DNA from: Candidatus Woesearchaeota archaeon
GTDB lineage: Archaea; Nanobdellota; Nanobdellia; SCGC-AAA011-G17; GCA-2687815
Assembly: GCA_964609195.1 (NCBI GenBank)
Contig: CAZSRE010000002.1
Location: forward strand, 22,286-42,727
Reading direction: 5' to 3'
DNA: 20,442 nt
Within the stretch, counting starts at the first letter, position 1; each line of letters begins with the position of its first letter. The notes under the pieces were generated by a model. That model had not been told where the DNA came from. It saw only the letters and a list, made by a program, of their open reading frames with translations, and searched no databases. Positions 1,300-14,693 of the stretch are shown here, piece after piece. Position numbers and translations under genes: made by a program.

Positions 1300-1743
1300 A
1301 TGTATAGATTCTTGAAGCATACAGCAGATGTATTGTTTGAGGTAGAGGCAAGTAGCCTGAATATGCTTTTTGAAGATGCTGGGAAGGCTGTCATGGCAAC
1401 TATGGCTGAGCTGAAGACTGTAAAACCCAGAGTTAAAAAAGAAATAAAACTAAAAGCAGGTAATATTGAAGACTTGCTTTACGATTTCCTTGCTGAACTG
1501 GTATATTTGAAAGATTCTGAGTTTACGATGTTTTCAGATTTTAATGTTAAGGTAGATGAGAAAAATGTTAGTTTAAGTGCTGAGATAATGGGGGATAAGA
1601 TTGATGCTGTAAAACAAAAGCTTGGAGTAGATGTAAAGGCTGTTACTATGCATATGTTTAGTGTGGAAAAGAAGCTTTTAGGAAAAGCTTCAGCAAAAAC
1701 TAGGAGATACAAGTGGTTTGCAAGAGTGCTTTTGGATGTTTAG
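1300..1743 (+). CDS. Archease (RtcB activator/chaperone)
   Basis: It has the N-terminal FLKHTADVLFEV block (archease HTAD motif) and VKAVTMH plus ..WFARVLLDV at the C-terminus. It is 147 aa and sits immediately upstream of rtcB, which is the conserved pairing. Confidence 0.9.
   Translation: MYRFLKHTADVLFEVEASSLNMLFEDAGKAVMATMAELKTVKPRVKKEIKLKAGNIEDLLYDFLAELVYLKDSEFTMFSDFNVKVDEKNVSLSAEIMGDKIDAVKQKLGVDVKAVTMHMFSVEKKLLGKASAKTRRYKWFARVLLDV
1671..1698 (+). repeat. Hairpin repeat module inside the archease CDS (GAAGCTTTT-agg-AAAAGCTTC + AGCAAAA)
   Basis: A perfect 9-bp stem with a 3-nt loop at 1671-1691 is followed by AGCAAAA. The same module occurs at 6235-6262 and 10062-10088. Here it is translated as KLLGKASAK. 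Confidence 0.75.
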
Positions 1744-1788: not shown

Positions 1789-3264
1789 ATGCTTATGGAA
1801 GAAAAAAAGCAAGTAATCCCTAAAGAGATTAAACATATTAGTGACGTGGTATGGGAAATTCCAACTAGCTATAAGCAAGGAATGCAGGTGCCAGCTAGAA
1901 TCTATGCAACAAATAAATTGATGCAACAAATGGATGCTGGCGTGTTTGACCAGATAACGAATGTGGCTTGTCTGCCTGGAATTCAGAAGTACGCAATGTG
2001 TATGCCGGATGCTCATTGGGGCTATGGCAGTCCAGTGGGTGGTGTCGCTGCTTTTGATCCGGAAAAAGGCGGGGTAATCTCGCCAGGAATTATCGGTTAT
2101 GACATTAATTGTGGCATGAGATCAATTGTGACAAACCTAACATTGGAAGATGTCAGACCAAAAATAAAGGAGTTAATAGATGCTTTATTTAAGACGGTGC
2201 CTGTAGGAGTTGGTGCAAAAGGAGTTGTTAGAGTAAACAAACAGCAATTTAAACAAGTGATGGAAGATGGGAGTAAATGGTGTGTTGATAATGGTTATGG
2301 TTGGGAAGAAGATTTGCAAAGAACAGAGAGCTATGGTAGAATAGATTGGGCAGATTCTAGTAAAGTTAGTGAAAAAGCTATTTCTCGAGGTATTAATCAA
2401 ATCGGCACATTAGGTAGTGGAAATCACTATCTTGAGATACAGTATGTCAAAGAAGAAGAAATATTTGATAAAAAGGTGGCTGAGAAATTCGGCATTTTTC
2501 CTGGTCAGATCTTGATAATGGTGCATTGTGGATCTAGAGGAATGGGACATCAAGTTGCAACAGATTATATTCAAGTTTTCGATAAGGCTATGAAGAAATA
2601 TAATATTACTATAAAAGACCGCGAATTAAGTTGCGCACCCTTTAATAGTGATGATGGTCAAGATTATTATAGAGCAATGGCATGCTCTGCTAATATGGCT
2701 TTTGCCAATAGGCAAGTAATATTGCATAGAATAAGAGAAGGATTCTCGCAGGTTTTTAAGAAATCTCCAGAAGACTTAGGCATGCATTTGATTTATGACA
2801 CTGCTCATAATGTGGCAAAAATTGAAGAGCATAGAATAGAAGGTAAAAAGAAAAAACTAATCGTTCACAGAAAGGGAGCAACTAGGGCATTCCCCCCAGG
2901 AGATCCGGAATTATCTCCTATATTTAAGGAAATAGGACAAATTTGTGTATTGGGGGGAAGTATGCAGACTGGTAGTGCTTTGTTGTTGGGTATAAAAGAG
3001 GCAGAAGAAACTTTTTATACAACAGCACATGGAAGCGGAAGAACAATGTCAAGGACTAGAGCTAGAAATGAGATAAGGGGAGAAAAGCTGTTAAAAGAAA
3101 TGGAAACTCAGGGAATTTATGTAAAAAGCGTCTCAATGTCTGGATTAGCTGAGGAGGCTGGTTCGGCATATAAGGATTTTGGAGATGTTCTAGATTCTAT
3201 TATCAAAGCTAAATTGAGTAGACCACTTGCGATTCTTCGTCCACTGGGAAATCTAAAGGGTTAA
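1789..3264 (+). CDS. rtcB: RNA-splicing ligase RtcB (3'-phosphate/5'-hydroxyl tRNA ligase)
   Basis: This 491-aa ORF has the RtcB signature blocks in order: CMPDAHWGYG, GYDINCGMR, GSGNHYLEIQ, HCGSRGMGHQ, HGSGR and C-terminal PLGNLKG. It has no intein-sized insertion. An alternative start is the ATG at 1795. Confidence 0.97.
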   Translation: MLMEEKKQVIPKEIKHISDVVWEIPTSYKQGMQVPARIYATNKLMQQMDAGVFDQITNVACLPGIQKYAMCMPDAHWGYGSPVGGVAAFDPEKGGVISPGIIGYDINCGMRSIVTNLTLEDVRPKIKELIDALFKTVPVGVGAKGVVRVNKQQFKQVMEDGSKWCVDNGYGWEEDLQRTESYGRIDWADSSKVSEKAISRGINQIGTLGSGNHYLEIQYVKEEEIFDKKVAEKFGIFPGQILIMVHCGSRGMGHQVATDYIQVFDKAMKKYNITIKDRELSCAPFNSDDGQDYYRAMACSANMAFANRQVILHRIREGFSQVFKKSPEDLGMHLIYDTAHNVAKIEEHRIEGKKKKLIVHRKGATRAFPPGDPELSPIFKEIGQICVLGGSMQTGSALLLGIKEAEETFYTTAHGSGRTMSRTRARNEIRGEKLLKEMETQGIYVKSVSMSGLAEEAGSAYKDFGDVLDSIIKAKLSRPLAILRPLGNLKG

Positions 3265-4711
3265 CGTTGGGTAAATTCCACTTCTTAAAGTCATCATTAA
3301 ACTTTATCTTATCGCTCAGGTTTTTAATTCTCTCAACCTTGTTAATTCGTTCTACCTTTATTATATTTGCAATTTCAAATATTCTTAAAACTTTTTCTAT
3401 ACTCTTATAATGTAGATTAGCCTCTTTGCATAAAGTGTATCTGTTAAATTGCTTTAATCTTATAATTTTTTCTAAAATAACTACAAAATCAATTTTACTA
3501 TTATTTTTGTTTGTCGGAAAAGCTGCTCTTAATTTAGTTTTTGCATCTTCTAATGAGCTAATATATGGATTATTTCCGTAGGTATACCAATATAATCTAT
3601 TATATTTAAATGTTGATTTATTGAAATAATCCAAAAAGCCTTTATTAAAAGAACTTTCAAATGAGAACTCCCCATCCTTTCTGATCCACCTATTTATATT
3701 TAACCCATCTTCTTTTAATACATTTTCTATAAAATCTATTATCTTTTTACTTCTCACATTTAGACTAACTCTACCATCAAATTTAACAGAACCATCAAAT
3801 TGTAAAAACCCATTACAAAATGCCTTCTTTACAATAAAGTCAGAATTTTCAATTATTTCAGGTGGTTTAACATCTTTGCATTTGTATCCTAGAGGGAAAT
3901 TAAAAATATTATTTAAATATCTTCCAATAACCTTATTAGATATAGAAATTATAGATTTATTTCTAGAGTGTTTCACTTTGACATTTATCCCAAATATCTC
4001 TTTTATTAGCCCCTTTAGAAATATCATGTCACTTTTATAGCCATCTACAATACCTATGTAATAACCTAATCTATACTTTATATTATTTCTTTTCAAAAAT
4101 TTGAATATCCCGATTTTTAAATCTTCCCTTACGTTAAAATTGAAGTAATACATATCTTTCAACTTCTTTCTTATTTTGCTTAGATTCAATAGACTAAAAT
4201 TATTTTTTATAAGTTCTTTGTAATCAAGCAATTTGATATGGTCAGTAGATTCTATACTTACTTGCAATCCTAGAGTTCCATCTGCAGCGTGAGCCCCGCA
4301 AAGCTTACTAACATCTTCATCACATAATTTATGAGCTTTGACAATCATTTTAGATTTTGGCATAGGTTTTAAGTAGTCTATAGAGGCAGTTAATTTATTT
4401 AAATAACAATTATACCTCTTTTCATCCTTTTCTTTGATCATAGATAATAATGATTCTATTAGATTTAAATGTATCCACAATGTCTTTCTTCTTAGTATGT
4501 CATTTAAGAGGTCTATAGAGCAATTTAGTTTAAGAGAAATTTCCTTGCATAGTCTAAGTTTCTTGTAATTATATAAAGCCATTACTTCTTTGACTATATT
4601 GTAGAAGTTGTCATATAAGCCAATCCCATTACATACTATCCAAGAGCATGGTCCACTATCTATAAGTGGGTCATGTAGCCTAAATAAATCTAACTGTTTC
4701 ATTCTTTTCAC
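3209..4711 (-). CDS. Free-standing double-motif LAGLIDADG homing-endonuclease-like protein with extra N- and C-terminal helical (HTH-like) regions
   Basis: This is a 500-codon ORF starting at GTG 4711, with the first ATG at 4702. It has two LAGLIDADG-like helices: KLCGAHAADGTLG (about residues 137-149) and KKAFCNGFLQFDGSV (about residues 295-309). The usual FLKGLIKEIFGINVKV block lies between them. The last 18 codons are antisense to the rtcB 3' end. Confidence 0.65.
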   Translation of the reverse strand: MKRMKQLDLFRLHDPLIDSGPCSWIVCNGIGLYDNFYNIVKEVMALYNYKKLRLCKEISLKLNCSIDLLNDILRRKTLWIHLNLIESLLSMIKEKDEKRYNCYLNKLTASIDYLKPMPKSKMIVKAHKLCDEDVSKLCGAHAADGTLGLQVSIESTDHIKLLDYKELIKNNFSLLNLSKIRKKLKDMYYFNFNVREDLKIGIFKFLKRNNIKYRLGYYIGIVDGYKSDMIFLKGLIKEIFGINVKVKHSRNKSIISISNKVIGRYLNNIFNFPLGYKCKDVKPPEIIENSDFIVKKAFCNGFLQFDGSVKFDGRVSLNVRSKKIIDFIENVLKEDGLNINRWIRKDGEFSFESSFNKGFLDYFNKSTFKYNRLYWYTYGNNPYISSLEDAKTKLRAAFPTNKNNSKIDFVVILEKIIRLKQFNRYTLCKEANLHYKSIEKVLRIFEIANIIKVERINKVERIKNLSDKIKFNDDFKKWNLPNVNPLDFPVDEESQVVYSI

Positions 4712-4740: not shown

Positions 4741-4753
4741 GGCTGCGCGCCCG

Positions 4754-4777
4754 TTTGTCTAGATGTCATTTGTCTAG
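4754..4777. promoter_or_regulatory. Operator-like direct repeat TTTGTCTAG x2, 15-nt spacing, in a divergent promoter region
   Basis: TTTGTCTAG occurs at 4754-4762 and 4769-4777. It is preceded by the GC-rich GGCTGCGCGCCCG (4741-4753), which abuts the palindromic TATA TTTATAAA (4733-4740) of the minus-strand gene. A 7-bp inverted repeat ATATGCT/AGCATAT lies at 4788-4805. Confidence 0.35.
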
Positions 4778-4813
4778 CGGCTAGAAAATATGCTTTGTAG
4801 CATATCAAAAATT

Positions 4814-4844: not shown

Positions 4845-5057
4845 ATGTACATCAAATGCCCAGTTTGTGGAAGTAGCGAACTAAGAATTGAGTATCATGA
4901 ACTTATGGGTAAGTATGTAATGTGTACTTCATGCGGATTTGATGAAAGCAAGGAATATGACGAGGGTTATGATGAAGAAAAGACCTCTGGAAAAGGAAAA
5001 GGGGGGAGCGTTTACAAAAGAGGCGGTCCAGGAAGGACACAAAAGAGCAGAAAATAA
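4845..5057 (+). CDS. Zn-ribbon miniprotein with a Gly/Lys-rich basic tail
   Basis: CPVCGS..(19 aa)..CTSCG forms a four-Cys ribbon in 70 aa. The tail is GKGKGGSVYKRGGPGRTQKSRK. Confidence 0.6.
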   Translation: MYIKCPVCGSSELRIEYHELMGKYVMCTSCGFDESKEYDEGYDEEKTSGKGKGGSVYKRGGPGRTQKSRK

Positions 5058-5066
5058 GCTTTTTAC

Positions 5067-5127
5067 AACCTTTTAGAAAAACGTTGACGAAAACAAGCCT
5101 TGAGGGAAAAGAAAAGCTTAAGCAAAA
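5067..5127 (+). repeat. Two degenerate copies of the hairpin spacer module
   Basis: One copy is AACcTTTT-ag-AAAAAcGTT (5067-5085). The other is CAAGCcTT..AAGCTT followed by AAGCAAAA (5094-5127). The spacer begins with AAGCTTTTT overlapping the stop codon at 5055-5057. Confidence 0.5.
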
Positions 5128-5184: not shown

Positions 5185-5814
5185 ATGGGTGGATTTAGCA
5201 AATTTTGGGAAAAGATGTTTGGCAACCTTTTCCGGAAAAAGAGGCAGCTTAAGCTAGGGATTTATGGTCCTCCTAATGGGGGGAAGACTACTCTTGCCAA
5301 TAGGATATGTACTGACTGGCTTGGAGAAGAGATGGGAACTACTTCTAAAATACCACATGAAACCAGACAGATTCAGACTAAGGAGAATATTACTATCAAA
5401 CACAAAAATAATGAGATCAAACTTAACCTTGTAGATACTCCTGGAATAGCAACTAAGATTGATTATGAAGATTTCTTGAAGTTCAAGCTGCCTATGGCTA
5501 AGGCCAAGCAAAGAGCTAAGGAAGCAACTAAAGGAGTTGTTGAGGCTATAAAATGGCTTGATGATATGGATGCTGTTCTTGTCGTGCTTGATTCAACATT
5601 AAATCCCTATAGCCAGGTAAACATTACAATCATAGGAAATCTTGCTGCTAGAAACATTCCAGTGTTGATTGTAGCAAATAAGGTTGATTTAAGGAATGCA
5701 AACATAAAGAAGATTGAGGCAGCTTTCCCGCAATATGAAGTAGTTGGGGTAAGTGCATTAAAAGGGGATAACCTGCAAGAGTTCTATGAGAAATTATTCA
5801 AGGTGGTAAGGTAA
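5185..5814 (+). CDS. Small TRAFAC-class GTP-binding protein
   Basis: The GTPase motifs are in canonical order: G1 GPPNGGKT, G2 region HETR, G3 DTPG, G4 NKVD and G5 SALKG. Confidence 0.85.
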   Translation: MGGFSKFWEKMFGNLFRKKRQLKLGIYGPPNGGKTTLANRICTDWLGEEMGTTSKIPHETRQIQTKENITIKHKNNEIKLNLVDTPGIATKIDYEDFLKFKLPMAKAKQRAKEATKGVVEAIKWLDDMDAVLVVLDSTLNPYSQVNITIIGNLAARNIPVLIVANKVDLRNANIKKIEAAFPQYEVVGVSALKGDNLQEFYEKLFKVVR

Positions 5815-5815
5815 A

Positions 5816-6217
5816 ATGCTGACGCTGCAATTTGTTCCATATGACGAGATTGAGCCATTGGATTCTGATGGAAGAATAAACAAATTGCTGAGCTTGGTAA
5901 AAGATAACAAGATAGTACTGATGCAGGGAAGATTAAAGGTTACTGAGGAAGCGAAGCTCATAGAGACTACGATGAATGAAATTAATGGAAACTTCAAAGG
6001 CATAGAGGTTTGTACAATATACCCTGAGAAAAGAAGGGGCGAATCTATTGGCACTAAAGTGAAGAAGGAAGTGGCAAAGATGCTGCTTGGTAATAGAGAA
6101 GGCTTGACTATAATCGGACCAAGTAGCTTGATAAAGGAAATAAAAAGAGATCCTAATAAGATACAGCTGCTGGCTACTGAGCTTTCAAGAAAAAGAAGAA
6201 GCGTAAGTAAAAAGTAA
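5816..6217 (+). CDS. Conserved archaeal protein, DUF2073/COG3365-like, translationally coupled to the GTPase gene
   Basis: The ATG lies 1 nt after the GTPase stop, with AGGTGG 9 nt upstream. The segment IVLMQGRLKVTEEAKLIETTMNEINGNFKGIEV fits my recollection of DUF2073, which I cannot verify here. Confidence 0.55.
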   Translation: MLTLQFVPYDEIEPLDSDGRINKLLSLVKDNKIVLMQGRLKVTEEAKLIETTMNEINGNFKGIEVCTIYPEKRRGESIGTKVKKEVAKMLLGNREGLTIIGPSSLIKEIKRDPNKIQLLATELSRKRRSVSKK

Positions 6218-6222
6218 AGCCT

Positions 6223-6290
6223 AGAGCTTTCTTAGAAGCTTTTAAAAAAAGCTTCAGCAAAAAGAAACCTCGGAAAGAAAGGCTTAAGAA
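6223..6290 (+). repeat. Composite spacer repeat: module X interrupted by hairpin module Y
   Basis: Module X is AGAGCTTTCTTAGAA ... AAGAAACCTCGGAAAGAAAGGCTTAAG. It is split by GAAGCTTTT-aaa-AAAAGCTTC + AGCAAAA (hairpin at 6235-6255). Uninterrupted X occurs at 10149-10190. Coding versions occur at 17874, 18588 and 18648. Confidence 0.7.
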
Positions 6291-6302
6291 AAAGGAAAAT
6301 AA

Positions 6303-6749
6303 ATGCCCCACCAATGTGTAAGATGCAGCACCATGTATGATGATGGTGCTAGCGAATTGCTTAAAGGCTGCAACTGCGGTAGTAGGTTCTTTTTCTATGT
6401 CAAGAAGAAAGATATTGAAACTGCTAAGCAATTGACTGTTGATCTGAAACCTGAGGAAAGACTGCAGATTGAGAAAGATGTCAAGGAGATAATAGGAGAG
6501 ACTATTGAAGATGATAAGCCAGTTATACTCGACCTGGAGACTATCAGATTGATGAAACCAGGAAAGTATGAGCTTGACATTGTAAACTTGTTTAGAGGAA
6601 AACCTTTGATATACAAGCTTGAGGAAGGCAAGTACTTCATTGACATTGCAGCAAGCTTCAAGAAAGGCTCTTTAGTTACATCTTCTAAGAAAGATGAGGA
6701 CAAAATGAAAACTGAGAAAGCTGATGATGATATTGATGATATCGAATAG
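6303..6749 (+). CDS. Zn-ribbon protein, DUF2072/COG3364-like
   Basis: It has N-terminal CVRCSTMYDDGASELLKGCNCGSRFFFYVKK (C-x2-C ... C-x-C) and an acidic tail DDDIDDIE. The family call is from memory. Confidence 0.55.
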   Translation: MPHQCVRCSTMYDDGASELLKGCNCGSRFFFYVKKKDIETAKQLTVDLKPEERLQIEKDVKEIIGETIEDDKPVILDLETIRLMKPGKYELDIVNLFRGKPLIYKLEEGKYFIDIAASFKKGSLVTSSKKDEDKMKTEKADDDIDDIE

Positions 6750-8624
6750 CTACTTATTAAAAAATTCTTTTATCATGATTTCTGGATTTATCGAAGTTTT
6801 TATTTCCCAGTCTTTAGGGAAGCAGCGTGAGTAGCTTGGCTGGATATATCTCTCATCAATAAATGCAATAATGCCTCGATCTGTTTCTGAGCGGATACAT
6901 CTTCCTGCTGCTTGCAAGGCCTTTATTACTGCAGGCATTATATAGCCATAATCCCAGCCTTTCTGGAACTTCTCATCATAATAACGAATAAGCTCTTGTG
7001 TCTCTAGATTTGGAGTTGCTAATGGCAAGCCAACAATTACTACAGCTTTTAGAAAATCGCCAGGCAAGTCAATCCCTTCTGAAAAACTGCCTGTACTAGT
7101 TGCTAGTAAAATAGCTCCAGAGTCTTTGTAGGATTTGAAGTTTTCAAGTAAAATGTTTCTGTCTGCTTTGCTTGCTCCTTGCTGCTCTAAAAATATTGTC
7201 TTATTTGCTTGTATTTTTAGATTCTCATAAACTCTGTCACGAATGTCATAGCTTGGGAAAAAGACAAGAACATTCCCAGGAATCTGGTTGATTGCATTTA
7301 CTGTTGTATTTGCTATATCCATGTACATCTTATCGCTTCTTGTACTGAACTTAGTTGATGTTTTTGGAACTATGATATTAAGGCGATTATGCTTTGGGAA
7401 TGGATCCTGGAACTCAGCGGTTAATGAATTGTCTAATCCAAGGATGTCTTTGTACATATTAACTGGGGATAATGTGCCTGACATCATTATGGTAGAGTAA
7501 GCTTCCTGGATTACATCTTTAGTTGCAACTGAGGGATCTAGACAATGATATGCCAGTGTTAGGTTAGTATATCCTCTTTTAGACTTTGTTTTTGACAGTA
7601 TCCTGGCAAAACCAAAATCCTCCCCTGTCCAGGCAGACAAGAAAGATGAGATAGCTGCAAGAAAGCTTCGTCTTTTTTCTTCTAATATGATATCTGATGC
7701 TTTATTAAACATGTTTATTATATCTTCATAATAGCCTAGCAATTCTATCTCTTTTATTAAATCTATTTTCTTTATTATTACTTCATTGCCATTCTTGATT
7801 TTCTCAGCAAGCTTTTCAAGAATATTAGATATTTTTTCTGTAGTTGAAATCAATTTTTCATCTTTTAACTGTCTTGCTTCTTTTAATGCTTGAGACATTA
7901 CATAGCTGGAAAGATCTATTGATAACAAATCTCTGATTCTTGATGGAAGGTTATGGGCTTCATCTACTATTATTATGCAATCGCCAAGATTTCTGTTTAT
8001 CTTGTTTAATATGTTGTCCCTGATTGACTTGTTAAATAGATGATAATAGTCTGCTATTACTACCTTTGCGTCTTTTGCCAGAAGAAGAGAAACCTCATAT
8101 GGGCATAGCTTGTGGTTGCTAGAGATATTTATAGAATTTTCCACATCTAATGGGCTTAATTGTGTTAGTGTGTTAAGTGCTTGTCTAGTAGCAATGCTTA
8201 ACTGCCCTTTAGATTTAAGATTAAGATAATACTCACATTCATCTTTTTCTCTCAGGTCACGGCAGTATTCTAAAAACTGGCCAGGTGGAAGGATAGAGGC
8301 ACCAGGCTGCAGGCACATCCAACGTTTTCCTATAAGGTCGACAACGATTGCATTCTTATTGTATTTCTGCTTGATCTTGCGCAGGCTGTCTATTGCTATC
8401 TTATGCTGGGTATGCTTTGAAGTTAAGAAGAAAACCACCTTATTATTGTTTAGCGCATAAGAAAGAGCGACAGGCAATGTAGAGTCTGTCTTTCCTATGC
8501 CTGTAGGAGCGTTAAGAATCAGATTCTGCTTATTGTCGAGAACAGTTTTTACTTTAGTAATCATACTTTCTTGATGGTCTCTAAACTCTGGATGTGGGAA
8601 TAATATAGAATCTTTATCTATCAT
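6750..8624 (-). CDS. xpd: XPD/Rad3-family Fe-S DNA helicase (SF2, DinG-like)
   Basis: It has Walker A NAPTGIGKT and DEAH box VDEAHNL. Four Cys lie between them (RWMC, EYC, DEC, KLCPYE), consistent with a 4Fe-4S domain. Motif VI is QAAGRCIRSETDRG. The ORF is 624 aa. Confidence 0.9.
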   Translation of the reverse strand: MIDKDSILFPHPEFRDHQESMITKVKTVLDNKQNLILNAPTGIGKTDSTLPVALSYALNNNKVVFFLTSKHTQHKIAIDSLRKIKQKYNKNAIVVDLIGKRWMCLQPGASILPPGQFLEYCRDLREKDECEYYLNLKSKGQLSIATRQALNTLTQLSPLDVENSINISSNHKLCPYEVSLLLAKDAKVVIADYYHLFNKSIRDNILNKINRNLGDCIIIVDEAHNLPSRIRDLLSIDLSSYVMSQALKEARQLKDEKLISTTEKISNILEKLAEKIKNGNEVIIKKIDLIKEIELLGYYEDIINMFNKASDIILEEKRRSFLAAISSFLSAWTGEDFGFARILSKTKSKRGYTNLTLAYHCLDPSVATKDVIQEAYSTIMMSGTLSPVNMYKDILGLDNSLTAEFQDPFPKHNRLNIIVPKTSTKFSTRSDKMYMDIANTTVNAINQIPGNVLVFFPSYDIRDRVYENLKIQANKTIFLEQQGASKADRNILLENFKSYKDSGAILLATSTGSFSEGIDLPGDFLKAVVIVGLPLATPNLETQELIRYYDEKFQKGWDYGYIMPAVIKALQAAGRCIRSETDRGIIAFIDERYIQPSYSRCFPKDWEIKTSINPEIMIKEFFNK

Positions 8625-8698: not shown

Positions 8699-9265
8699 AT
8701 GAGAAAAGAGGTAAAGCAGGACATATATAATGTTATCAAAAATAGTATTAAAGCGATAAGAAGCAAGAATGTTTCTCTGCTAAAAGATCTTAGCAACCAT
8801 ACAATACATGATGCCAGCATTTACCAGGATGAACATTCTGTAAGCATTGCTGTAGTTATTTATTCATTATATAAGATATTTGAAAGGAGCGATTATAAGA
8901 AGTATAGTGACTGGAACTTATTCTATAGGGGAGTAGTTGATAATCTGAAGAAAGCTTTCTTTGCACTGAAGAAGAATGAGGATGAGCATTATGAAAGGCA
9001 TATTAGGGATATTTTCAACATGATTGACAAGTTAGACAGCAGACTTAGAATCTATGCTAAGGATGTATTTGAACAGGCAAAAGTGCATAGAGCTTCTAGA
9101 CTGCATGAACATGGTGTATCTGTGGGAAGAACAGCAGAGATACTTGGAATTTCCGAATGGGAATTGATGGACTATATTGGAAAAACAGGGATAAGCGATA
9201 ATGACCTTAATATGAGTATGGATGTTAAAGACAGGCTGAAATATGCGAGGAGCTTATTCAAATGA
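8699..9265 (+). CDS. UPF0175/COG2886-like HTH protein (antitoxin-type C-terminus) with a long helical N-terminal extension
   Basis: The C-terminal ASRLHEHGVSVGRTAEILGISEWELMDYIGKTGIS matches the UPF0175 pattern (..klSlgkAAelaGlsrweF.e.L...gI). It overlaps the next gene by 4 nt (ATGA). Confidence 0.55.
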   Translation: MRKEVKQDIYNVIKNSIKAIRSKNVSLLKDLSNHTIHDASIYQDEHSVSIAVVIYSLYKIFERSDYKKYSDWNLFYRGVVDNLKKAFFALKKNEDEHYERHIRDIFNMIDKLDSRLRIYAKDVFEQAKVHRASRLHEHGVSVGRTAEILGISEWELMDYIGKTGISDNDLNMSMDVKDRLKYARSLFK

Positions 9266-9954
9266 AGAGCATTGTCTTTGACACTAGCACTATAATAAGT
9301 ATAGCCACAAATAACTTGCTGCACGTTCTTGAAGATATGAAGAAAAGATTTGGAGGGGAGTTCTATATTGTAGATGCTGTTAGAAGAGAGGCAATTGAAG
9401 TGCCTATGAAAGGCAAGCTCTATAAGCTAGAAGCTATAATGGTAGCAGATTTAGTAAATAGAGGAGTAATTAAAATATATAGCAGTAAAGAACTGGTTGA
9501 TAAAGCAAATAAGATAGCAGAGCTGGCCAACAACATATACAAGGCTAAAGGCAACCACCTTAAATTGATACATTCTGGTGAGGTTGAAAGCCTGGCAATT
9601 GCATGCGATGTAAACGGGACTTTAGCTATAGATGAAAGAACTACAAGACTGCTTATTGAGAATGCTGATCTGCTTGCCAAAATACTAAGGAAAAAATTGC
9701 ATACAAATGTATTCGTAGATAGGAAAAAACTAGCAGAGTTCAAAGACATGGTTTGTAATGTTAATGTAATCAGGAGTGCTGATTTGCTTGTTGTTGCTTA
9801 TGAACTTGGATTGCTAGATAAGTATCTTAACAAGAGCATATTTGCTACAAGCAAGAGAGAGTTACTAGATGCTTTACTATGGGGGGTGAAGCTGAGAGGA
9901 TGCAGCATAAGTGGAGAGGAGATTGATAAAATCATTGAGCTTGAAGGACTGTAA
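9262..9954 (+). CDS. PIN-domain protein, COG2405/DUF3368-like, with a C-terminal extension
   Basis: Acidic PIN residues appear in the expected contexts: IVFDTS (N-terminal Asp), SGEVESLAIA and LAIDERTTR. It also has IVDAVRREAIEV and IRSADLLVVAYELGLL, as in COG2405 proteins that pair with UPF0175. Confidence 0.7.
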   Translation: MKSIVFDTSTIISIATNNLLHVLEDMKKRFGGEFYIVDAVRREAIEVPMKGKLYKLEAIMVADLVNRGVIKIYSSKELVDKANKIAELANNIYKAKGNHLKLIHSGEVESLAIACDVNGTLAIDERTTRLLIENADLLAKILRKKLHTNVFVDRKKLAEFKDMVCNVNVIRSADLLVVAYELGLLDKYLNKSIFATSKRELLDALLWGVKLRGCSISGEEIDKIIELEGL

Positions 9955-9980
9955 ACTTTTAGGAAAAGTTTAACCAAAAA
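9953..9980 (+). repeat. Hairpin spacer module, variant AAACTTTT-agg-AAAAGTTT + AACCAAAA
   Basis: An 8-bp stem at 9953-9971 overlaps the stop codon at 9952-9954. Compared with the 1671 copy, the inner G:C pair is replaced by A:T on both arms. Confidence 0.65.
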
Positions 9981-9987
9981 AGGAAGG

Positions 9988-9995
9988 TTTAAAAG
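9988..9995 (+). promoter_or_regulatory. TATA box for tRNA-Trp
   Basis: TTTAAAAG, preceded by GGAAGG, is centred about 31 nt upstream of tRNA position 1 (10023). Confidence 0.4.
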
Positions 9996-10022
9996 ATGCT
10001 ATTTTCTCGATACTTATGTTAA

Positions 10023-10147
10023 GGGGTCGTAAGCTAACTTGGCAAACTGGCCGCCTCCAGACAAGCTTTTAAAAAAAGCTTGAGCAAAAGGTAAAAAAGG
10101 CTAAAGGAAGAAAGCGGCACTTGTGGGTTCAAATCCTGCCGACCCCA
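10023..10147 (+). tRNA. tRNA-Trp: tRNA-Trp (anticodon CCA) with a 52-nt intron at the canonical 37/38 position
   Basis: The acceptor stem is GGGGTCG/CGACCCC (7 bp). The D arm is AGCT/AACT, with one C-A mismatch and GG in the loop. The anticodon stem is GCCGC (10050-54)/GCGGC (10114-18), with loop C-U-CCA-G..A. The T arm is GTGGG-TTCAAAT-CCTGC and the discriminator is A. The mature length is 73 nt, and CCA is not encoded. Confidence 0.85.
10061..10112 (+). other. tRNA-Trp intron (boundaries approximate)
   Basis: This is the insert between G37 (10060) and A38 (10113). It contains CAAGCTTTT-aaa-AAAAGCTTG + AGCAAAA at 10062-10088. No C/D boxes (RUGAUGA / CUGA) are present. Confidence 0.7.
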
Positions 10148-10148
10148 T

Positions 10149-10238
10149 AGCTTTCTTAGAAAGAAACCTAGGAAAGAAGAAAGAAAGCTTAACCAAAGAA
10201 ATTAAGAGAATTATAAGAAAGCTTAATCAAAACTTTTT
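10149..10238 (+). repeat. Spacer repeat module X plus AAAGCTTAAYCAAA units downstream of the tRNA
   Basis: AGCTTTCTTAGAA (10149-10161) is identical to 6225-6237. AAGAAACCTAGGAAAGAA (10161-10178) matches 6262-6279 at 17 of 18 positions. AAAGCTTAACCAAA and AAAGCTTAATCAAA follow. Confidence 0.65.
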
Positions 10239-10356
10239 AAAATATAAATTATATATCATCTAGGATATAGTGATTGTAGTTGTTACTTTTATATAATAGT
10301 AAATAGTGGAAAGTTTTATATATCTTTAGGTTATAAAAAAACACGGGGGTTTCGAA

Positions 10357-11289: not shown

Positions 11290-12689
11290 CAAGAATTAAG
11301 ACACCTGGATTACTTGCATTAATACTATTGATAGCTATACCATTAGCTTTAGCCGTATCTGTAAGCGTAAAATGGACAGCAAACCTTAATGACTTTAATG
11401 GAGTAGTGTATCATTGCACAGACTCTAGATGTAATAATTTAGATAATAAATTGCTTGAACTAAACTCTGGCAACAATAATTTCTTAATCACTAACTTTAC
11501 TGCACCAGATGGCTTGACAGATTCTCATGCTGCATACTTTACAAAGCAATGTTATGTACCAAATGAATTCATAATACAAACTATCGGCGATGTTAACTAC
11601 AATACAGCTAAAGATGTGTTCTTTGGCAAGAAGACAGGATGCCAGGCAGAAATTGATGATGAAGATTTTGTATTTCTAAACCTTGTGAATGATATTGGAA
11701 CTGTTGGAAGCCCATTCAGCATTGTAGTACCTGTAAAAAGCGCATTTTCAGGCAGGAATGGTGCTGCAGGCACACCTGGATTTATACCTGATAATCTAAA
11801 AGATGATTATTATTCTTCATTAGTTAGAGTAAGCGTAGATGTTAAAAATAGTCATGGTGTAAGCGTATTTACTGAATCTAAAGATGTTAAAATATTAGTA
11901 GATGATATGCAGAATGTTTTATTTACATGGGTTCCAGAGCAAAGAGGAACATACACGATGATCTTAAAGACAAGAGTGATAGATTGTAAGTGTTCAAGCA
12001 CAAAAGATGACCAAATAAATAAGTATGTCCTCATAAAGCAAGGAACAGGAACAACCACCACAACAACCACAGTTACTACAACTACTACACTTGGTAGCAC
12101 GACAACAACTACAATTCCTGGAAATACTACAACAACAACCCAGACAACTACTACAACAGTTTCATCTGGAGGTGGGGGCGGAGGAAGCAGTTCATCTGGC
12201 AGTAAAGATGTATTTTACTTAGATAATGTAAGACTAGATAGCTATAGTTTTATGCCTGGAGAACAGTTAGAGATTAATGTTGACTTAAGAAAGGATGTTG
12301 GCAGAGACTTAAGAGGAATAGCAATAAGAGTAAACATACCTGGATTAGGAATATCAAGAACTTCTGATGAATTTATATTAGATGAGAAAGAAGAGACAAA
12401 GCAGTTTGAAATAACTATTCCCGGAGATGCAGAACCTGGAGATTATGTGATGGACATAATTGTCTTTAATGATGATAGGACATTAGACAGATATGTCAAG
12501 TTTACAGTAACTGGAGAGATAACTCAGGCAGGAACAGGCACTACCTCTGCAACCAGCGGTTTGGAGAGAATTACAGGAAGTGCTGTGGGAATACCAGATA
12601 CTGGAAGCTTGTTAAACTCTGGATTGTTTAGGATTGGATTGATGGCAATTCTTACAATGGTTATTTTCTATATTATATGGAGAATATAG
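11286..12689 (+). CDS. Secreted, C-terminally anchored surface protein with a poly-Thr/Gly/Ser linker and a CARDB-like Ig domain
   Basis: The TTG start overlaps the upstream stop (TTGA), with GGGGG 9 nt upstream. The signal peptide is GLLALILLIAIPLALAVS. After a Thr-rich linker comes a beta-sandwich-like block (PGEQLEINVDL..PGDYVMDIIVFN..VKFTVTG). This is followed by ERITGSAVG and a terminal TM helix. Confidence 0.7.
   Translation: MTRIKTPGLLALILLIAIPLALAVSVSVKWTANLNDFNGVVYHCTDSRCNNLDNKLLELNSGNNNFLITNFTAPDGLTDSHAAYFTKQCYVPNEFIIQTIGDVNYNTAKDVFFGKKTGCQAEIDDEDFVFLNLVNDIGTVGSPFSIVVPVKSAFSGRNGAAGTPGFIPDNLKDDYYSSLVRVSVDVKNSHGVSVFTESKDVKILVDDMQNVLFTWVPEQRGTYTMILKTRVIDCKCSSTKDDQINKYVLIKQGTGTTTTTTTVTTTTTLGSTTTTTIPGNTTTTTQTTTTTVSSGGGGGGSSSSGSKDVFYLDNVRLDSYSFMPGEQLEINVDLRKDVGRDLRGIAIRVNIPGLGISRTSDEFILDEKEETKQFEITIPGDAEPGDYVMDIIVFNDDRTLDRYVKFTVTGEITQAGTGTTSATSGLERITGSAVGIPDTGSLLNSGLFRIGLMAILTMVIFYIIWRI
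12042..12203 (+). repeat. Low-complexity coding tract (poly-Thr, then Gly6, then Ser-rich)
   Basis: It encodes GTGTTTTTTTVTTTTTLGSTTTTTIPGNTTTTTQTTTTTVSSGGGGGGSSSSGS using mixed ACA/ACC/ACT codons. Confidence 0.9.
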
Positions 12690-12691
12690 GC

Positions 12692-12701
12692 TTTTATTTT
12701 T
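12692..12701 (+). terminator. Oligo-T archaeal terminator candidate
   Basis: TTTTATTTTT begins 3 nt after the stop at 12687-12689. Confidence 0.4.
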
Positions 12702-12754
12702 CCCTTTAGATAGCTTTATAACTGTTTTGGTAGCCATGAAATAATTAGTTACTA

Positions 12755-12770
12755 CCGAAAGGTTTAAATA
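12755..12770 (+). promoter_or_regulatory. BRE/TATA promoter of the major surface-protein gene
   Basis: CCGAAAGG is followed by TTTAAATA (12763-12770), a near-consensus archaeal BRE/TATA. A strong SD AAGGAGGG follows at 12811-12818. Confidence 0.55.
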
Positions 12771-12825
12771 CGTATTATCATGGTTTAATGATAACATGTT
12801 ATTAAAGACTAAGGAGGGTATGAAA

Positions 12826-14208
12826 ATGGGTAACAAAAGTAAATTGTTTAGTTTAGTTCTAGTATTGTTACTTAGCTTTGCAGCTCTACCTGGCTTCGTA
12901 AAGTCTCTAGTAGTGACAGATGGCCCATTTGGTTTCCAGACTCTGGAAGTGGATGGAGAAAGTGTAGACACTAGTAGTGTGCTATCTGTTGAAAGAGGAG
13001 ACTCTGTTGAGGTAAAGGTAAGATTTACACCACCTACAAATGCTGAGGGTGTAAGAATAGATGCAGAGTTGAGAGGATTAGAAGATGAGAATGTTGAGGA
13101 TAGAACTGATACATTCGATATTTTGGCTGGAAAAACCTATGTCAAAACATTGACATTAGACATACCAGAAGACTTGAGTGAAGATGATCTAGACAAAGAA
13201 TTTACCCTAAAGGTAGACTTTGACGGTGATGTTTGTGATGCAACTGGTGCAAATTGCACTGCAGAAAGTTATGCAACAAGCACAGGCTTGATTGTAACAA
13301 GTGCAAGACATGATTTAAGGATACAGGATATTGTATTCAGATCTGGAAGCACTGTAGATGCTGGCGGAAACTTATTCGTTACAGTATGGGTCGAGAATAA
13401 GGGAAGCAAGGCTGAAGAGGACATTAATGTCCAGGTAAGCGCACCTGAACTCGGCTTGTCTGCAAGAGACAAGATAGATGAGCTTGTAACTGCAGGCGAA
13501 GAAGATAAAGCTGGTGCAAGAGACAGAGATACTGACACTGAAGCAGTAAACTTTGCTCTAAAATTGCCAAGCGATGCAACTGCCGGAGACTATGACCTAG
13601 TAGTCGAAGTAGATTACAACAGAGGAAGAGAAACTGTCAAGCAGACAGAAACTTTCACTGTAACTGGTGGAGCAGCTCCTAGAGTTGAGGCAGAGACTAT
13701 AGTAACAGTTGATACTACAAGTCAAAGCGTAAACAGAGGGGAAGGAACTATCTACAAGTTCAGCTTCGCAAACTTAGGCAAACAGGCAAAGACATTTAGT
13801 GTAGATGTCACAGGAGCAGAGCCATGGGGAAGCGTAAGAGTTGACCCATCTTTCGTAACTGTGCAGCCTGGAGCAACATCTGAAGCATTTGTATTTGTGA
13901 CTGCCAAAGATGATGCAAGCCTAGGAAAGCACTTGCTAACAGCAAATGTAAAAGATGGCAGCATGCTCTTGAAGTCTGTCAGCCTAGAAGCTGATGTCAA
14001 GGGACAGGCACCAACAGCTGTTACAGGAGCAGCTTCATGGGATCAAGTCAGAAAAGGCCTTGAGATTGGATTTGCAGTACTATTGATAATCCTAGTAATA
14101 CTAGGAATTATAATAGCAATTGGCAAGCTAAGAAAAGGCGATGGTTCAAATGAAGAAGAACCTGGTCAAGCAGAAGGACAGAGTTATTACTATTACCCAA
14201 GGTATTAG
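12826..14208 (+). CDS. Major surface (S-layer-like) protein with CARDB/COG1470-type Ig-like domains, a C-terminal TM anchor and a Tyr-rich tail
   Basis: The ORF is open from 12796, but GGAGG (12813-12817) is 8 nt from the ATG at 12826 and only 2 nt from the ATG at 12820. The signal peptide is KLFSLVLVLLLSFAALPGFVKS. The domains show ..VWVENKGSKAEEDINVQV..AGDYDLVVEVDY..TFTVTG and ..FVTVQPGATSEAFVFVTA.. patterns. The TM helix is IGFAVLLIILVILGIIIAIG and the tail ends QSYYYYPRY. Confidence 0.75.
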   Translation: MGNKSKLFSLVLVLLLSFAALPGFVKSLVVTDGPFGFQTLEVDGESVDTSSVLSVERGDSVEVKVRFTPPTNAEGVRIDAELRGLEDENVEDRTDTFDILAGKTYVKTLTLDIPEDLSEDDLDKEFTLKVDFDGDVCDATGANCTAESYATSTGLIVTSARHDLRIQDIVFRSGSTVDAGGNLFVTVWVENKGSKAEEDINVQVSAPELGLSARDKIDELVTAGEEDKAGARDRDTDTEAVNFALKLPSDATAGDYDLVVEVDYNRGRETVKQTETFTVTGGAAPRVEAETIVTVDTTSQSVNRGEGTIYKFSFANLGKQAKTFSVDVTGAEPWGSVRVDPSFVTVQPGATSEAFVFVTAKDDASLGKHLLTANVKDGSMLLKSVSLEADVKGQAPTAVTGAASWDQVRKGLEIGFAVLLIILVILGIIIAIGKLRKGDGSNEEEPGQAEGQSYYYYPRY

Positions 14209-14243: not shown

Positions 14244-14693
14244 ATGATAGCGTATAGGAAAAGATTACAAGAACAGCTTTCTAAATTAGGATTAGAACAA
14301 GCAGGCGTTTATGCAGCAAGAATCCCTTTGTATGAGACAATATCTGATATTTTAGATAAACGTGGTGCTATATTTGCACCCCATGTTTCAGAGTTATTTA
14401 GGGGGATTATTGCTACTGAGCGAGCCGCAACTACAACAGATTTAGCTAGATATGGGGCGTTAATTGGAAAGGATTATGGAATTAATGTAATCAGTCTTAA
14501 TGAGGCAATTAGTAATGTATATGGTCGTAATTTTATATATAAAAATCGCGATAGACATGTTAATAAGACTACTAGTATTTTTTATAAATCTACAAATAGT
14601 TTGGATAAATTTATTAGGAAGCATACATCAAAATTAGAGTTAATTATTATTGATTGTGATTTTCCAAAATTGATTAACGAAAAAATAAAATGA
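14244..14693 (+). CDS. Hypothetical protein (orphan) in an AT-rich stretch
   Basis: This 149-aa ORF has no motif I recognise, and its 3' third is very AT-rich. Coding status is uncertain. Confidence 0.4.
   Translation: MIAYRKRLQEQLSKLGLEQAGVYAARIPLYETISDILDKRGAIFAPHVSELFRGIIATERAATTTDLARYGALIGKDYGINVISLNEAISNVYGRNFIYKNRDRHVNKTTSIFYKSTNSLDKFIRKHTSKLELIIIDCDFPKLINEKIK

Follow-up and report, generated by a model that had tools for sequence, protein, structure and literature searches.

The stretch analyzed here (the window; 20,442 nt of contig CAZSRE010000002.1 of a Candidatus Woesearchaeota archaeon, positions 22,286 to 42,727) carries a tRNA-Trp gene interrupted by a 52-nt intron, and a hairpin in this intron recurs in intergenic spacers of the same window. 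The locus therefore raises the question of whether the intron arose from, or captured, a repeat element. We consider it probable, at roughly 60%, that the hairpin and its short tail (the module) are one copy of a mobile palindromic repeat of a DPANN archaeal lineage, similar to MITEs (miniature inverted-repeat transposable elements) and repetitive extragenic palindromes (REPs), and that this copy serves as helix h' of the bulge-helix-bulge (BHB) structure in the tRNA-Trp intron. An origin of this kind had been proposed from the letters of the window alone (the sequence-only reading). It fits the gain and loss of copies between relatives and the presence of the module in the introns of several tRNA species.

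The tRNA-Trp gene and its intron

The Rfam tRNA model matched positions 10023-10147 of the plus strand with 33.8 bits (gathering score 29) and a 56-nt insertion in the anticodon loop. ARAGORN in intron mode (-i) reported the same interval as tRNA-Trp(cca) with i(37,52), a 52-nt intron; without intron mode it reported zero tRNAs in the window. Each program made this single detection, in agreement with the earlier statement that tRNA-Trp(CCA) is the only tRNA of the window. A clean cloverleaf of the 73-nt tRNA-Trp was obtained once 10061-10112 were removed in silico, which confirmed, together with the ARAGORN result, the earlier placement of an intron of about 52 nt at 37/38. The parts of the gene are as follows, with a slash marking predicted cleavage.

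9987-9996, plus strand: probable tRNA promoter GGTTTAAAAG, a TATA-like box about 27-34 nt 5' of the tRNA and apart from the module (read from the sequence)
10023-10060, plus strand: 5' exon of tRNA-Trp from the acceptor stem through G37, with the anticodon CCA at 10057-10059 (Rfam, ARAGORN -i, in silico splicing)
10050-10054 and 10114-10118, plus strand: anticodon stem, GCCGC with GCGGC (read from the sequence)
10055-10060, plus strand: loop bases C32 U33 C34 C35 A36 G37 (read from the sequence)
10055-10058, plus strand: 5' strand of the predicted central helix, C32 U33 C34 C35 (RNAfold)
10061-10112, plus strand: intron at 37/38, 52 nt (ARAGORN -i; the BHB-type fold sets both cleavage sites at these borders)
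10062-10082, plus strand: module hairpin CAAGCTTTT-AAA-AAAAGCTTG, the predicted h', starting 1 nt past the 5' splice site (hairpin scan, RNAfold, shuffle count)
10083-10089, plus strand: module tail AGCAAAA, the start of the A-rich linker that leads from h' to the central helix's 3' strand
10095-10102, plus strand: degenerate second 3' arm AAAAGGCT, partner in an alternative helix proposed earlier (read from the sequence)
10106-10110, plus strand: 3' strand of the predicted central helix, GGAAG, followed by the 3' bulge AA/A at 10111-10113 (RNAfold)
10113-10147, plus strand: tRNA-Trp 3' exon, A38 (10113) to the discriminator (Rfam, ARAGORN -i, in silico splicing)

The probable promoter GGTTTAAAAG, whose function is assigned from its position and letters, is conserved in two relatives described below (L120 and L124). 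The full intron reads ACAAGCTTTTAAAAAAAGCTTGAGCAAAAGGTAAAAAAGGCTAAAGGAAGAA. A scan for perfect hairpins recovered its 9-bp stem with a 3-nt loop, followed by AGCAAAA, at the place given by the sequence-only reading, one nucleotide into the intron. In Euryarchaeota such as Haloferax and Pyrococcus, an intron of the same tRNA at the same position encodes a box C/D guide (mentioned in PMC12558985). In contrast to the intron described there, no C, D, C' or D' box is present here and 52 nt leaves no room for a guide. Neither RUGAUGA nor CUGA was found in the intron, and a permissive Rfam scan of 9930-10260 returned, the tRNA aside, only chance matches below threshold; both searches agree with the earlier report of an intron without C/D boxes.

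Copies of the module in the window

In the perfect-hairpin scan, a hairpin of the same make-up (9-bp stem, 3-nt loop) was found at three further sites, 1671, 6235, and 9952. These copies and the more divergent ones are listed below.

1671-1691, plus strand: hairpin GAAGCTTTT AGG AAAAGCTTC followed by AGCAAAA, with a G...C closing pair (hairpin scan)
1671-1701, plus strand: the same copy inside the archease gene; the 30-nt in-frame insert, 1672-1701, reads AAGCTTTTAGGAAAAGCTTCAGCAAAAACT and encodes KLLGKASAKT
6235-6262, plus strand: GAAGCTTTTAAAAAAAGCTTC followed by AGCAAAA, in the OapB-OapC spacer (hairpin scan)
6235-6255, plus strand: hairpin of the OapB-OapC spacer copy, GAAGCTTTT AAA AAAAGCTTC, with a G...C closing pair
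9952-9979, plus strand: TAAACTTTTAGGAAAAGTTTA followed by ACCAAAA; the first three bases are the TAA stop codon of the open reading frame (ORF) 9262-9954
9952-9972, plus strand: hairpin of the stop-codon copy, TAAACTTTT AGG AAAAGTTTA followed by ACCAAAA, an AAAC/GTTT variant
5055-5127, plus strand: composite module with outer arms TAAGCTTTTT (5055-5064) and AGAAAAGCTTA (5110-5120), paired by RNAfold, and the tail AGCAAAA
5066-5093, plus strand: degenerate inner module CAACCTTTTAGAAAAACGTTG followed by ACGAAAA, enclosed by the outer arms of the composite
10149-10198, plus strand: variant module directly 3' of the tRNA, AGCTTTCTT ... AAGAAAGCTT followed by AACCAAAG
10218-10231, plus strand: solitary half-motif AAAGCTTAATCAAA (half-motif scan)

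A half-motif match also lies at 5113-5126 within the composite module, and TAA at 5055-5057 is apparently the stop codon of a small upstream ORF (by eye; below the cut-off of the ORF list). The variant that follows the tRNA is the one found in the intron hairpin of L120, and it also follows tRNA-Trp in L009, another locus described below. The hairpins at 1671 and 6235 are closed by G:C and that of the intron by C:G; the intron hairpin is thus the spacer module with its outer pair flipped, as had been noticed before.

The pattern AAGCTTTT-N1-8-AAAAGCTT occurred three times in the window against 0.01 expected from shuffles. The half-motif AAAGYTTNANCAAA had seven exact matches, all on the plus strand, against about 1.07 expected even with one mismatch allowed. 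No Rfam family matched the module in the window. A chance resemblance in AT-rich sequence of low complexity could be suspected, because the window has 36% G+C and is rich in A/G runs. It is hardly credible in view of the shuffle counts, and genome collections contain the same 21 specified bases at least 116 times, the closing pair covarying (see below).

The sequence-only reading had also considered that the spacer copies mimic substrates of the splicing endonuclease. This proposal found no support: folds at 1671, 6235, 9952, and 5055 gave the hairpin only, with no flanking BHB. The archease insert was considered as an mRNA intron and rejected, since inspection revealed no central-helix complement around it, its 30 nt are in frame without a stop codon, and the frame is retained with amino-acid changes in a more distant relative (L122).

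Gain and loss of the module between close relatives

A syntenic contig, L120, was reached through archease homologues (archease 87% identical; DNA about 75-91% identical over aligned stretches), and a second relative, L124 (about 90% identical), through the tRNA-Trp 5' exon. Three of the four perfect copies of the window, namely those in archease, in the OapB-OapC spacer, and at the stop codon, were missing at the matching places in L120. The archease insert was absent from L120 (protein P0002), from P0004, from all distant archeases compared, and from the Pyrococcus structure PDB 4n2p; it was present in the window, in P0001, and in the more distant L122 (P0003), where the stem has decayed. 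At the site of the OapB-OapC spacer copy, L120 reads AGCTTTCTTAAAA joined to AGAAACCTCGG, with no module (realigned by eye). At the stop-codon site, 26 nt (9952-9977 by alignment) were absent from L120 and the ORF is five codons longer, and the L124 copy contains an extra 40-nt module-like insert nested in its hairpin loop. Module-like hairpins made up five of the ten indels of at least 8 nt between these relatives.

The tRNA-Trp exons were identical at 73 of 73 positions in the window, L124, and L120. The introns measured 52, 57, and 73 nt, respectively, with 48 of 57 (L124) and 32 of 73 (L120) identical alignment columns relative to the window. The L120 intron has a TTTCTT/AAGAAA hairpin variant. 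No tRNA-Trp intron devoid of the repeat, the finding that the sequence-only reading had named as contrary to its proposal, was seen in these relatives: L124, L120, and L009 all carry the module or a variant.

Three L120 copies (721, 2161, and 14137) have a 5' arm AACCTTT opposite a 3' arm AAAGCTT and share a C·C mismatch, which suggests that genome-specific subfamilies may descend from a master copy. The L124 intron (minus strand, 1150-1210) contains half-site direct repeats about 12 nt apart, AAAAGCTTGAGC, AAAAAGCTTAAG, and AAAAAAAGC; the tail of the module may be a decayed direct repeat of its 3' arm.

Predicted fold of the intron

The anticodon arm and intron were folded with RNAfold, and every statement on the BHB below is a prediction from the minimum-energy structure. 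In order, this structure consists of the anticodon stem, a 3-nt bulge (A10111 A10112/A10113), the central helix, a second 3-nt bulge (A36 G37/A10061), and the 9-bp module hairpin. The 5' bulge (10059-10061, AG/A) and the 3' bulge (10111-10113, AA/A) lie on opposite strands, and cleavage after the second base of each would give the borders that the mature tRNA needs, 10060/10061 and 10112/10113. The central helix is predicted to pair 10055 with G10110, 10056 with A10109, 10057 with G10107, and 10058 with G10106. It is not an uninterrupted 4-bp helix, as A10108 is bulged out or, otherwise, three pairs and a C·A mismatch are formed. Nor is h' continuous with it, since 23 A-rich nucleotides (10083-10105) separate the hairpin from the 3' strand of the central helix.

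The sequence-only reading had seen no obvious canonical BHB. This stands insofar as the motif is not the strict 3-4-3 type, but it missed that two predicted 3-nt bulges sit exactly at the splice sites. That reading had paired only U33-C34-C35 with GGA, leaving larger loops, whereas RNAfold adds C32, bulges out A10108, and arrives at 3-nt bulges. The alternative helix between 10064-10070 and 10095-10102 exists in the sequence but lies outside the minimum-energy fold.

The strict 3-4-3 hBHBh' motif and the relaxed hBH and bulge-helix-loop (BHL) types were defined in PMC3239211, and relaxed motifs are cut by broad-specificity endonucleases (PMC3239211). The RNAfold structure contains the structural part of a relaxed BHB, a bulge flanked by two helices, and the predicted BHB of the intron is accordingly a relaxed one, neither strict 3-4-3 hBHBh' nor absent. 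Many DPANN endonucleases have an insert that is linked with more disrupted tRNA genes (PMC5829648). No splicing endonuclease gene was found in the window or in the related loci.

L124, the closest relative, folded alike, including the same two bulges (RNAfold), and both L124 and L120 retain GAAGAA/A at the intron's 3' end. The folds of L124 and L017 also contained a linker placed like the 23-nt one, and inspection showed the same for L009, L011, and L122. At the place matching AAAAGGCT of the window, L124 has a perfect second arm, AAAAAGCTT. In L053, a second copy of the 3' arm directly adjoins the central helix, which makes a fully continuous canonical BHB possible (inspection); to judge by this comparison, AAAAGGCT of the window looks like a decayed version of such an arm.

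The module in other tRNA genes

Introns with a similar module were found in tRNA-Trp (window, L124, L120, and L009), tRNA-Thr (L122), and the D-loop of tRNA-Ile (L039) and, by inspection, in tRNA-Ala, tRNA-Val, and tRNA-Ser. ARAGORN did not fix the exact splice borders of the multi-intron tRNAs of L011, L017, L053, L029, and L108, which were assigned by inspection.

L009 (Woesearchaeota), tRNA-Trp: CUCC AG/U AAGCUUUU GAA AAAAGCUU A AGCAAAAACUA GGAG UC/A (ARAGORN after three introns were removed)
L039, tRNA-Ile(GAU): module in a D-loop intron (ARAGORN after two introns were removed)
L122, tRNA-Thr(GGU): 38-nt intron at 37/38, A TTAGCTTTTT AGG AAAAAGCTTAA GCATAAA CTAT AA (ARAGORN after splicing)
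L011, tRNA-Ala(GGC); L053, tRNA-Val(GAC); L017, tRNA-Ser(UGA): by inspection, the layout of L017 also appearing in its fold

The central helix of the L009 tRNA-Trp is perfect (CUCC/GGAG). The L122 tRNA-Thr is an unbiased case, because this locus was fetched through archease and not through the module. In L011, L053, and L017 (inspection), nucleotides 32-35 pair with four bases ending two before the 3' splice site, the bulges are 3 nt each, and the module hairpin begins 1 nt after the 5' site. When the module was excised with variable flanks and ARAGORN was run across the junction, a tRNA was rebuilt in about 10 archaeal loci in addition to the window, with many alternative cuts; among bacterial loci, the same test gave a single-cut tRNA in just one. 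An Rfam scan at the gathering threshold missed most interrupted tRNAs in 20 related loci.

The minus-strand tRNA of L020 has two module introns: the one in the D-loop is reversed, with its hairpin adjoining the 3' splice site, and the one in the anticodon loop carries a forward AAAC-type module. A complete tRNA gene is preceded by a short, duplicated tRNA 5' fragment, with a module between the two, in L113 (676-760) and L005 (minus strand, near 590-660). The order in L113 is fragment, module, and reverse complement of the fragment, an arrangement that makes a long stem. These fragments may be a trace of rearrangement or a split-tRNA-like leader.

Distribution and form of the repeat family

Species-representative genomes were scanned for AAGCTTTTNNNAAAAGCTTNANCAAA, giving at least 116 stretches, and many of the archaeal matches lay inside tRNA genes. 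Among the matches listed, 40 exact copies were present in 37 DPANN or unclassified archaeal loci, and the groups represented were Woesearchaeota, Pacearchaeota, Nanoarchaeota, Micrarchaeota, Aenigmatarchaeota, Altiarchaeota, and Iainarchaeota. The closing pair, which the search had left free, was Watson-Crick in 38 of these 40 (CG 10, TA 15, AT 5, and GC 8); this covariation argues for a folded single strand. The tail in about 60 archaeal copies was AGC, ACC, or ATC followed by AAAA.

About 18 of the 40 copies were in or beside tRNA genes, as determined by inspection, the excision test, and the Rfam scan. They occupied anticodon-loop and D-loop positions of several tRNA species, and the count includes one copy that immediately adjoins the 3' end of a tRNA and two that follow a duplicated tRNA 5' fragment. 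By our estimate, tRNA genes make up less than 1% of such genomes, so the module is very strongly enriched at tRNA genes.

In a survey of 432 kb for perfect hairpins followed by A.CAAA, almost all stems were AAGCTTT/AAAGCTT or AAACTTT/AAAGTTT; the latter class included about 30 copies that the search with AAGCTTTTNNNAAAAGCTTNANCAAA had not selected for. Relative to both flanking genes, 33 copies were co-oriented and 3 opposed. All window copies are single-ended. Two-ended inverted forms were found inside the tRNA introns of L029 and L050, and in L029 the tails pair with each other. Metagenome-assembled genomes (MAGs) of Thermococcaceae (L013 4995-5300, L110 54-365, L075, and L107) contained units of about 300 nt bounded by inverted modules, each a hairpin followed by AYCAAAGTTTGTAGCTC. 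These units often lie directly 3' of a tRNA, their interior has a conserved GACGCC..GGCGTC hairpin and then GGTAAACCC, and adjacent units are 504-522 nt apart in L075 and L107. They may represent a MITE or a small-RNA gene family.

The palindrome could also be a site in double-stranded DNA, such as a mimic of a B recognition element (BRE) and TATA box, a two-way terminator, or an operator, its presence in introns being incidental. The half-site AAAAG(C/T)TT does resemble the start of the local promoters GGAAAGTTTTATATAT and AAAAACTTTATAATATA, and half-sites are directly repeated in the L124 intron. However, 55-139 nt lie between the copies and the tRNA or start codon that follows, and distinct TATA boxes are present at suitable places; a role as tRNA or gene promoter was rejected on this spacing. 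An oligo-T terminator is unlikely, as the sense strand offers only T4 whereas other window genes end in runs of T5-T7. The closing pair, variable yet complementary, favors a folded single strand over a duplex read by a protein, and we regard a DNA site as quite improbable.

The same hairpin with an ACCAAAA tail was also observed in four giant-virus MAG bins (IMG/VR), in tandem arrays of 28-nt period and as gene-end copies (L138 11485-11706, L144 1239-1320, L132-L134, L126, L128, L131, L145, L147, L148, and L151). L134 has genes of viral or eukaryote-like appearance; these copies may reflect mis-binning, convergence, or true common ancestry. Bacterial repeat families of about 130-190 nt with the same hairpin and ACCAAAA occurred in Komagataeibacter, Novacetimonas, and Acetobacter (L008, L022, L037, L040, and others) and in Poribacteria Bin_402 and Oscillospiraceae/Clostridia MAGs. 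The repeats of the acetic acid bacteria have a TTTTGGT upstream that pairs with the tail, and between the two lies a second, GC-rich hairpin. Rfam holds no family for the Komagataeibacter repeat.

Origin of the intron module

Taken at the DNA level, the repeat would be a unit of about 25-30 nt, N-AAGCTTTT-NNN-AAAAGCTT-N' followed by A-(G/C/T)-CAAAA, whose copies would be inserted and lost quickly, whether in spacers, at the ends of genes, or, with the frame preserved, within a protein gene. At the RNA level, its hairpin would supply h' one base past the 5' splice site, pairing of nucleotides 32-35 with GGAAG, close to where the intron ends, would place both splice sites in 3-nt bulges, and the A-rich tail would form the linker opposite the 5' bulge. 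Cleavage by the splicing endonuclease would then fall at 10060/10061 and 10112/10113, and the exons would presumably be joined by RtcB with archease. Because such introns need a hairpin, copies would survive in them or be replaced by sister variants. Splicing by the host would remove the repeat from the RNA and therefore make tRNA introns a safe haven for it, and tRNA introns are probably a place where the repeat is under selection. The membership of the intron hairpin in the family, the presence/absence polymorphism, the recurrence in other tRNA introns, and the predicted fold are established here. That the RNA is actually cut and joined, that the repeat moves as DNA, and that the intron captured it, and not the reverse, are inferences.

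Several observations weigh against this reading. The patchy archease insert (present in the window, P0001, and P0003; absent from P0002 and P0004) would need several events or recombination, and no clear target-site duplication can be defined, because the ends of the inserts and their targets are both A-rich. No transposase domain was found in six ORFs that are flanked by inverted modules at a distance of 0.5-3.5 kb from each other; an autonomous element between such pairs was considered and rejected, as only ordinary genes were found. All three relatives retain the hairpins directly after the tRNA and at the 5' end of the intron, which suggests that these are functional and more than parasitic. 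The number of tRNA-associated copies comes from exact-pattern matches and favors copies kept intact by selection. In the fold, the predicted central helix is imperfect, with either a bulged A or a C·A mismatch, and does not run on into h', the cleavage itself being a prediction.

The orientation bias of 33:3 and the conservation of primary sequence across phyla would also fit a functional RNA signal. According to this explanation, hairpin and tail are a processing or punctuation site, a 3'-end stabilizer, or an endonuclease helper that is read by a conserved factor and used at gene ends, after tRNAs, and inside introns. Many copies begin at, or a few bases from, a stop codon, tRNAs in the window, L124, L120, L009, and Thermococcaceae are followed on their 3' side by a hairpin with A-N-CAAA, and the loops are purine-rich. 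On the other hand, L120 lacks three of the four window copies at the corresponding positions, and one of these is in frame in a protein and decayed in L122. Nested copies occur, a reverse-oriented copy is present in a tRNA intron of L020, and the common C·C mismatch of the L120 copies looks like descent from a master copy. The orientation bias itself could arise from selection against reverse-strand T-runs in transcripts. We therefore consider a dedicated RNA signal unlikely, though it is the alternative to be taken most seriously.

The direction could also be reversed. The hairpin would then be the old, original h' of DPANN tRNA introns, and its copies in spacers and coding sequence would derive from introns, either because excised intron sequence was copied back into DNA or through gene conversion. 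Nearly half of the exact DPANN copies among the matches listed are in or beside tRNA genes, and the archease insert with its 3' flank, GAAGCTTTTAGGAAAAGCTTC AGCAAAAACTAGGAG, equals the L009 intron tail and central-helix strand AGCAAAAACTAGGAG base for base. However, the AGG of this shared 15-mer is also present at the empty site of L120, neither a reverse transcriptase nor another way of turning RNA into DNA is evident, and the two-ended inverted forms and the bacterial and viral families with the same hairpin look like DNA elements. We find this reversal doubtful. A mobile repeat captured as h' is accordingly the reading that we carry into the comparisons below.

A broader version is possible but much more tentative: hairpin elements of about 27 nt across DPANN phyla may have specialized to live as host-spliced introns, so that insertions into tRNA genes are tolerated and new introns are continually seeded or renewed. 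If this were true, the terminal hairpin would supply the h' of the BHB, and insertion into tRNA genes would be tolerated at canonical and noncanonical positions; the related modules of Thermococcaceae, some bacteria, and giant-virus bins would then point to an unrecognized mobilizing system across domains.

Comparison with known systems and significance

The element is best labeled a MITE/REP-like palindromic repeat, and the intron is of the relaxed archaeal BHB kind. Like canonical hBHBh' introns at 37/38, it combines this position with two predicted 3-nt bulges that would be cut after their second base, an h formed by the anticodon stem, a central helix between nucleotides 32-35 and the 3' end of the intron, a stable h', and expected joining by RtcB and archease. 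It differs in the bulged A or C·A mismatch of the predicted central helix and in the 23-nt A-rich branch after h', which leaves the 5' site in an asymmetric loop nearer to the relaxed hBH/BHL types (PMC3239211). A further difference is that the sequence of h' is shared with a genomic repeat.

The dispersed copies and the insertion polymorphism between related genomes are those of MITEs, and the short, imperfect, mostly intergenic, and orientation-biased palindrome is that of REP-like repeats. REPs and bacterial interspersed mosaic elements (BIMEs), MITEs, and Rickettsia palindromic elements all share with the module a short palindrome in many copies, mostly intergenic, with orientation bias, nesting, and insertion polymorphism. 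Rickettsia palindromic elements are reported to insert in frame into protein genes, as the archease copy does here. In contrast to REPs and MITEs, solo copies of 25-30 nt are below the typical MITE size, no RAYT or transposase partner was found in the six ORFs between inverted pairs, no target duplication is definable, and the module is strongly enriched in tRNA introns, from which host splicing removes it. A high density of MITEs has been reported for a Woesearchaeon (PMC11602168).

The intron transposition of Thermoproteales is the other obvious parallel and, to our knowledge, the only sequence-based clue cited so far for the acquisition of archaeal tRNA introns. There, as here, similar introns recur across tRNA species and positions, implying gain by movement. 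The present case differs, as far as the summary of Fujishima et al. (2010) in PMC4033280 goes, in that the unit is a defined hairpin of about 27 nt with a tail that is also found in spacers, stop codons, and coding sequence, in that presence and absence are seen at the strain level, in that several DPANN phyla and not one order are involved, and in that two-ended MITE-like forms exist. In the open full-text literature searched, we found no prior description of the module and no paper linking a defined repeat module to DPANN tRNA introns.

Gain and loss together with recurrence point to small mobile repeats feeding archaeal tRNA introns. This bears on how archaeal tRNA genes gain introns, especially at noncanonical positions, as the module is a searchable sequence unit that makes up most of the intron, is placed where h' is needed, is gained and lost between relatives, and occurs across DPANN tRNA species. 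The question is now testable with existing metagenomes, metatranscriptomes, and one recombinant enzyme assay. This case also explains why tRNA finders miss genes here, ARAGORN at default settings and the Rfam gathering scan having overlooked most interrupted tRNAs.

Neighboring genes and other features of the window

The following genes were annotated around the module copies.

1300-1743, plus strand: archease (Pfam PF01951, 2.4e-36)
1789-3264, plus strand: RtcB (Pfam PF01139, 2.1e-163)
3209-4711, minus strand: free-standing 500-aa ORF with LAGLIDADG-like motifs (GAHAADGTLG and FCNGFLQFDGSV), overlapping the rtcB 3' end in antisense (no Pfam match)
5185-6749: GTPase (OapA-like by position, our own reading), then OapB and OapC (Pfam for OapB and OapC)
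6750-8624, minus strand: XPD-type helicase gene

Archease and RtcB are the ligase pair expected to join the exons and lie 7 kb upstream of tRNA-Trp; they are context and not part of the element, and archease itself holds a translated copy of the intron's hairpin module. At the site matching 3209-4711, the L120 ORF matches PF14528 (LAGLIDADG_3) and aligns weakly with the window ORF (28% identity, E = 2e-06). The LAGLIDADG-like ORF itself looks like an insertion, because L122 has no such gene after rtcB.

Compared with the window, L120 has an extra 346-aa gene (12310-13350) between a 188-aa gene and a PIN-like (DUF3368) gene, and an extra 116-aa ORF downstream of the tRNA (14248-14634). A metagenome scan with the tRNA-adjacent ORF (9262-9951) returned no relatives. 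A small RNA or tRNA fragment at 4745-4810 was considered and had no Rfam support. An unrelated 7-bp hairpin, ATATGCT-TTGT-AGCATAT followed by CAAAAAT, lies at 4788-4811 in the spacer before a small zinc-ribbon ORF, and GTCTAG-containing repeats near it resemble a tRNA D-arm. A replication origin may lie near OapB and OapC, which Pfam describes as origin-associated.

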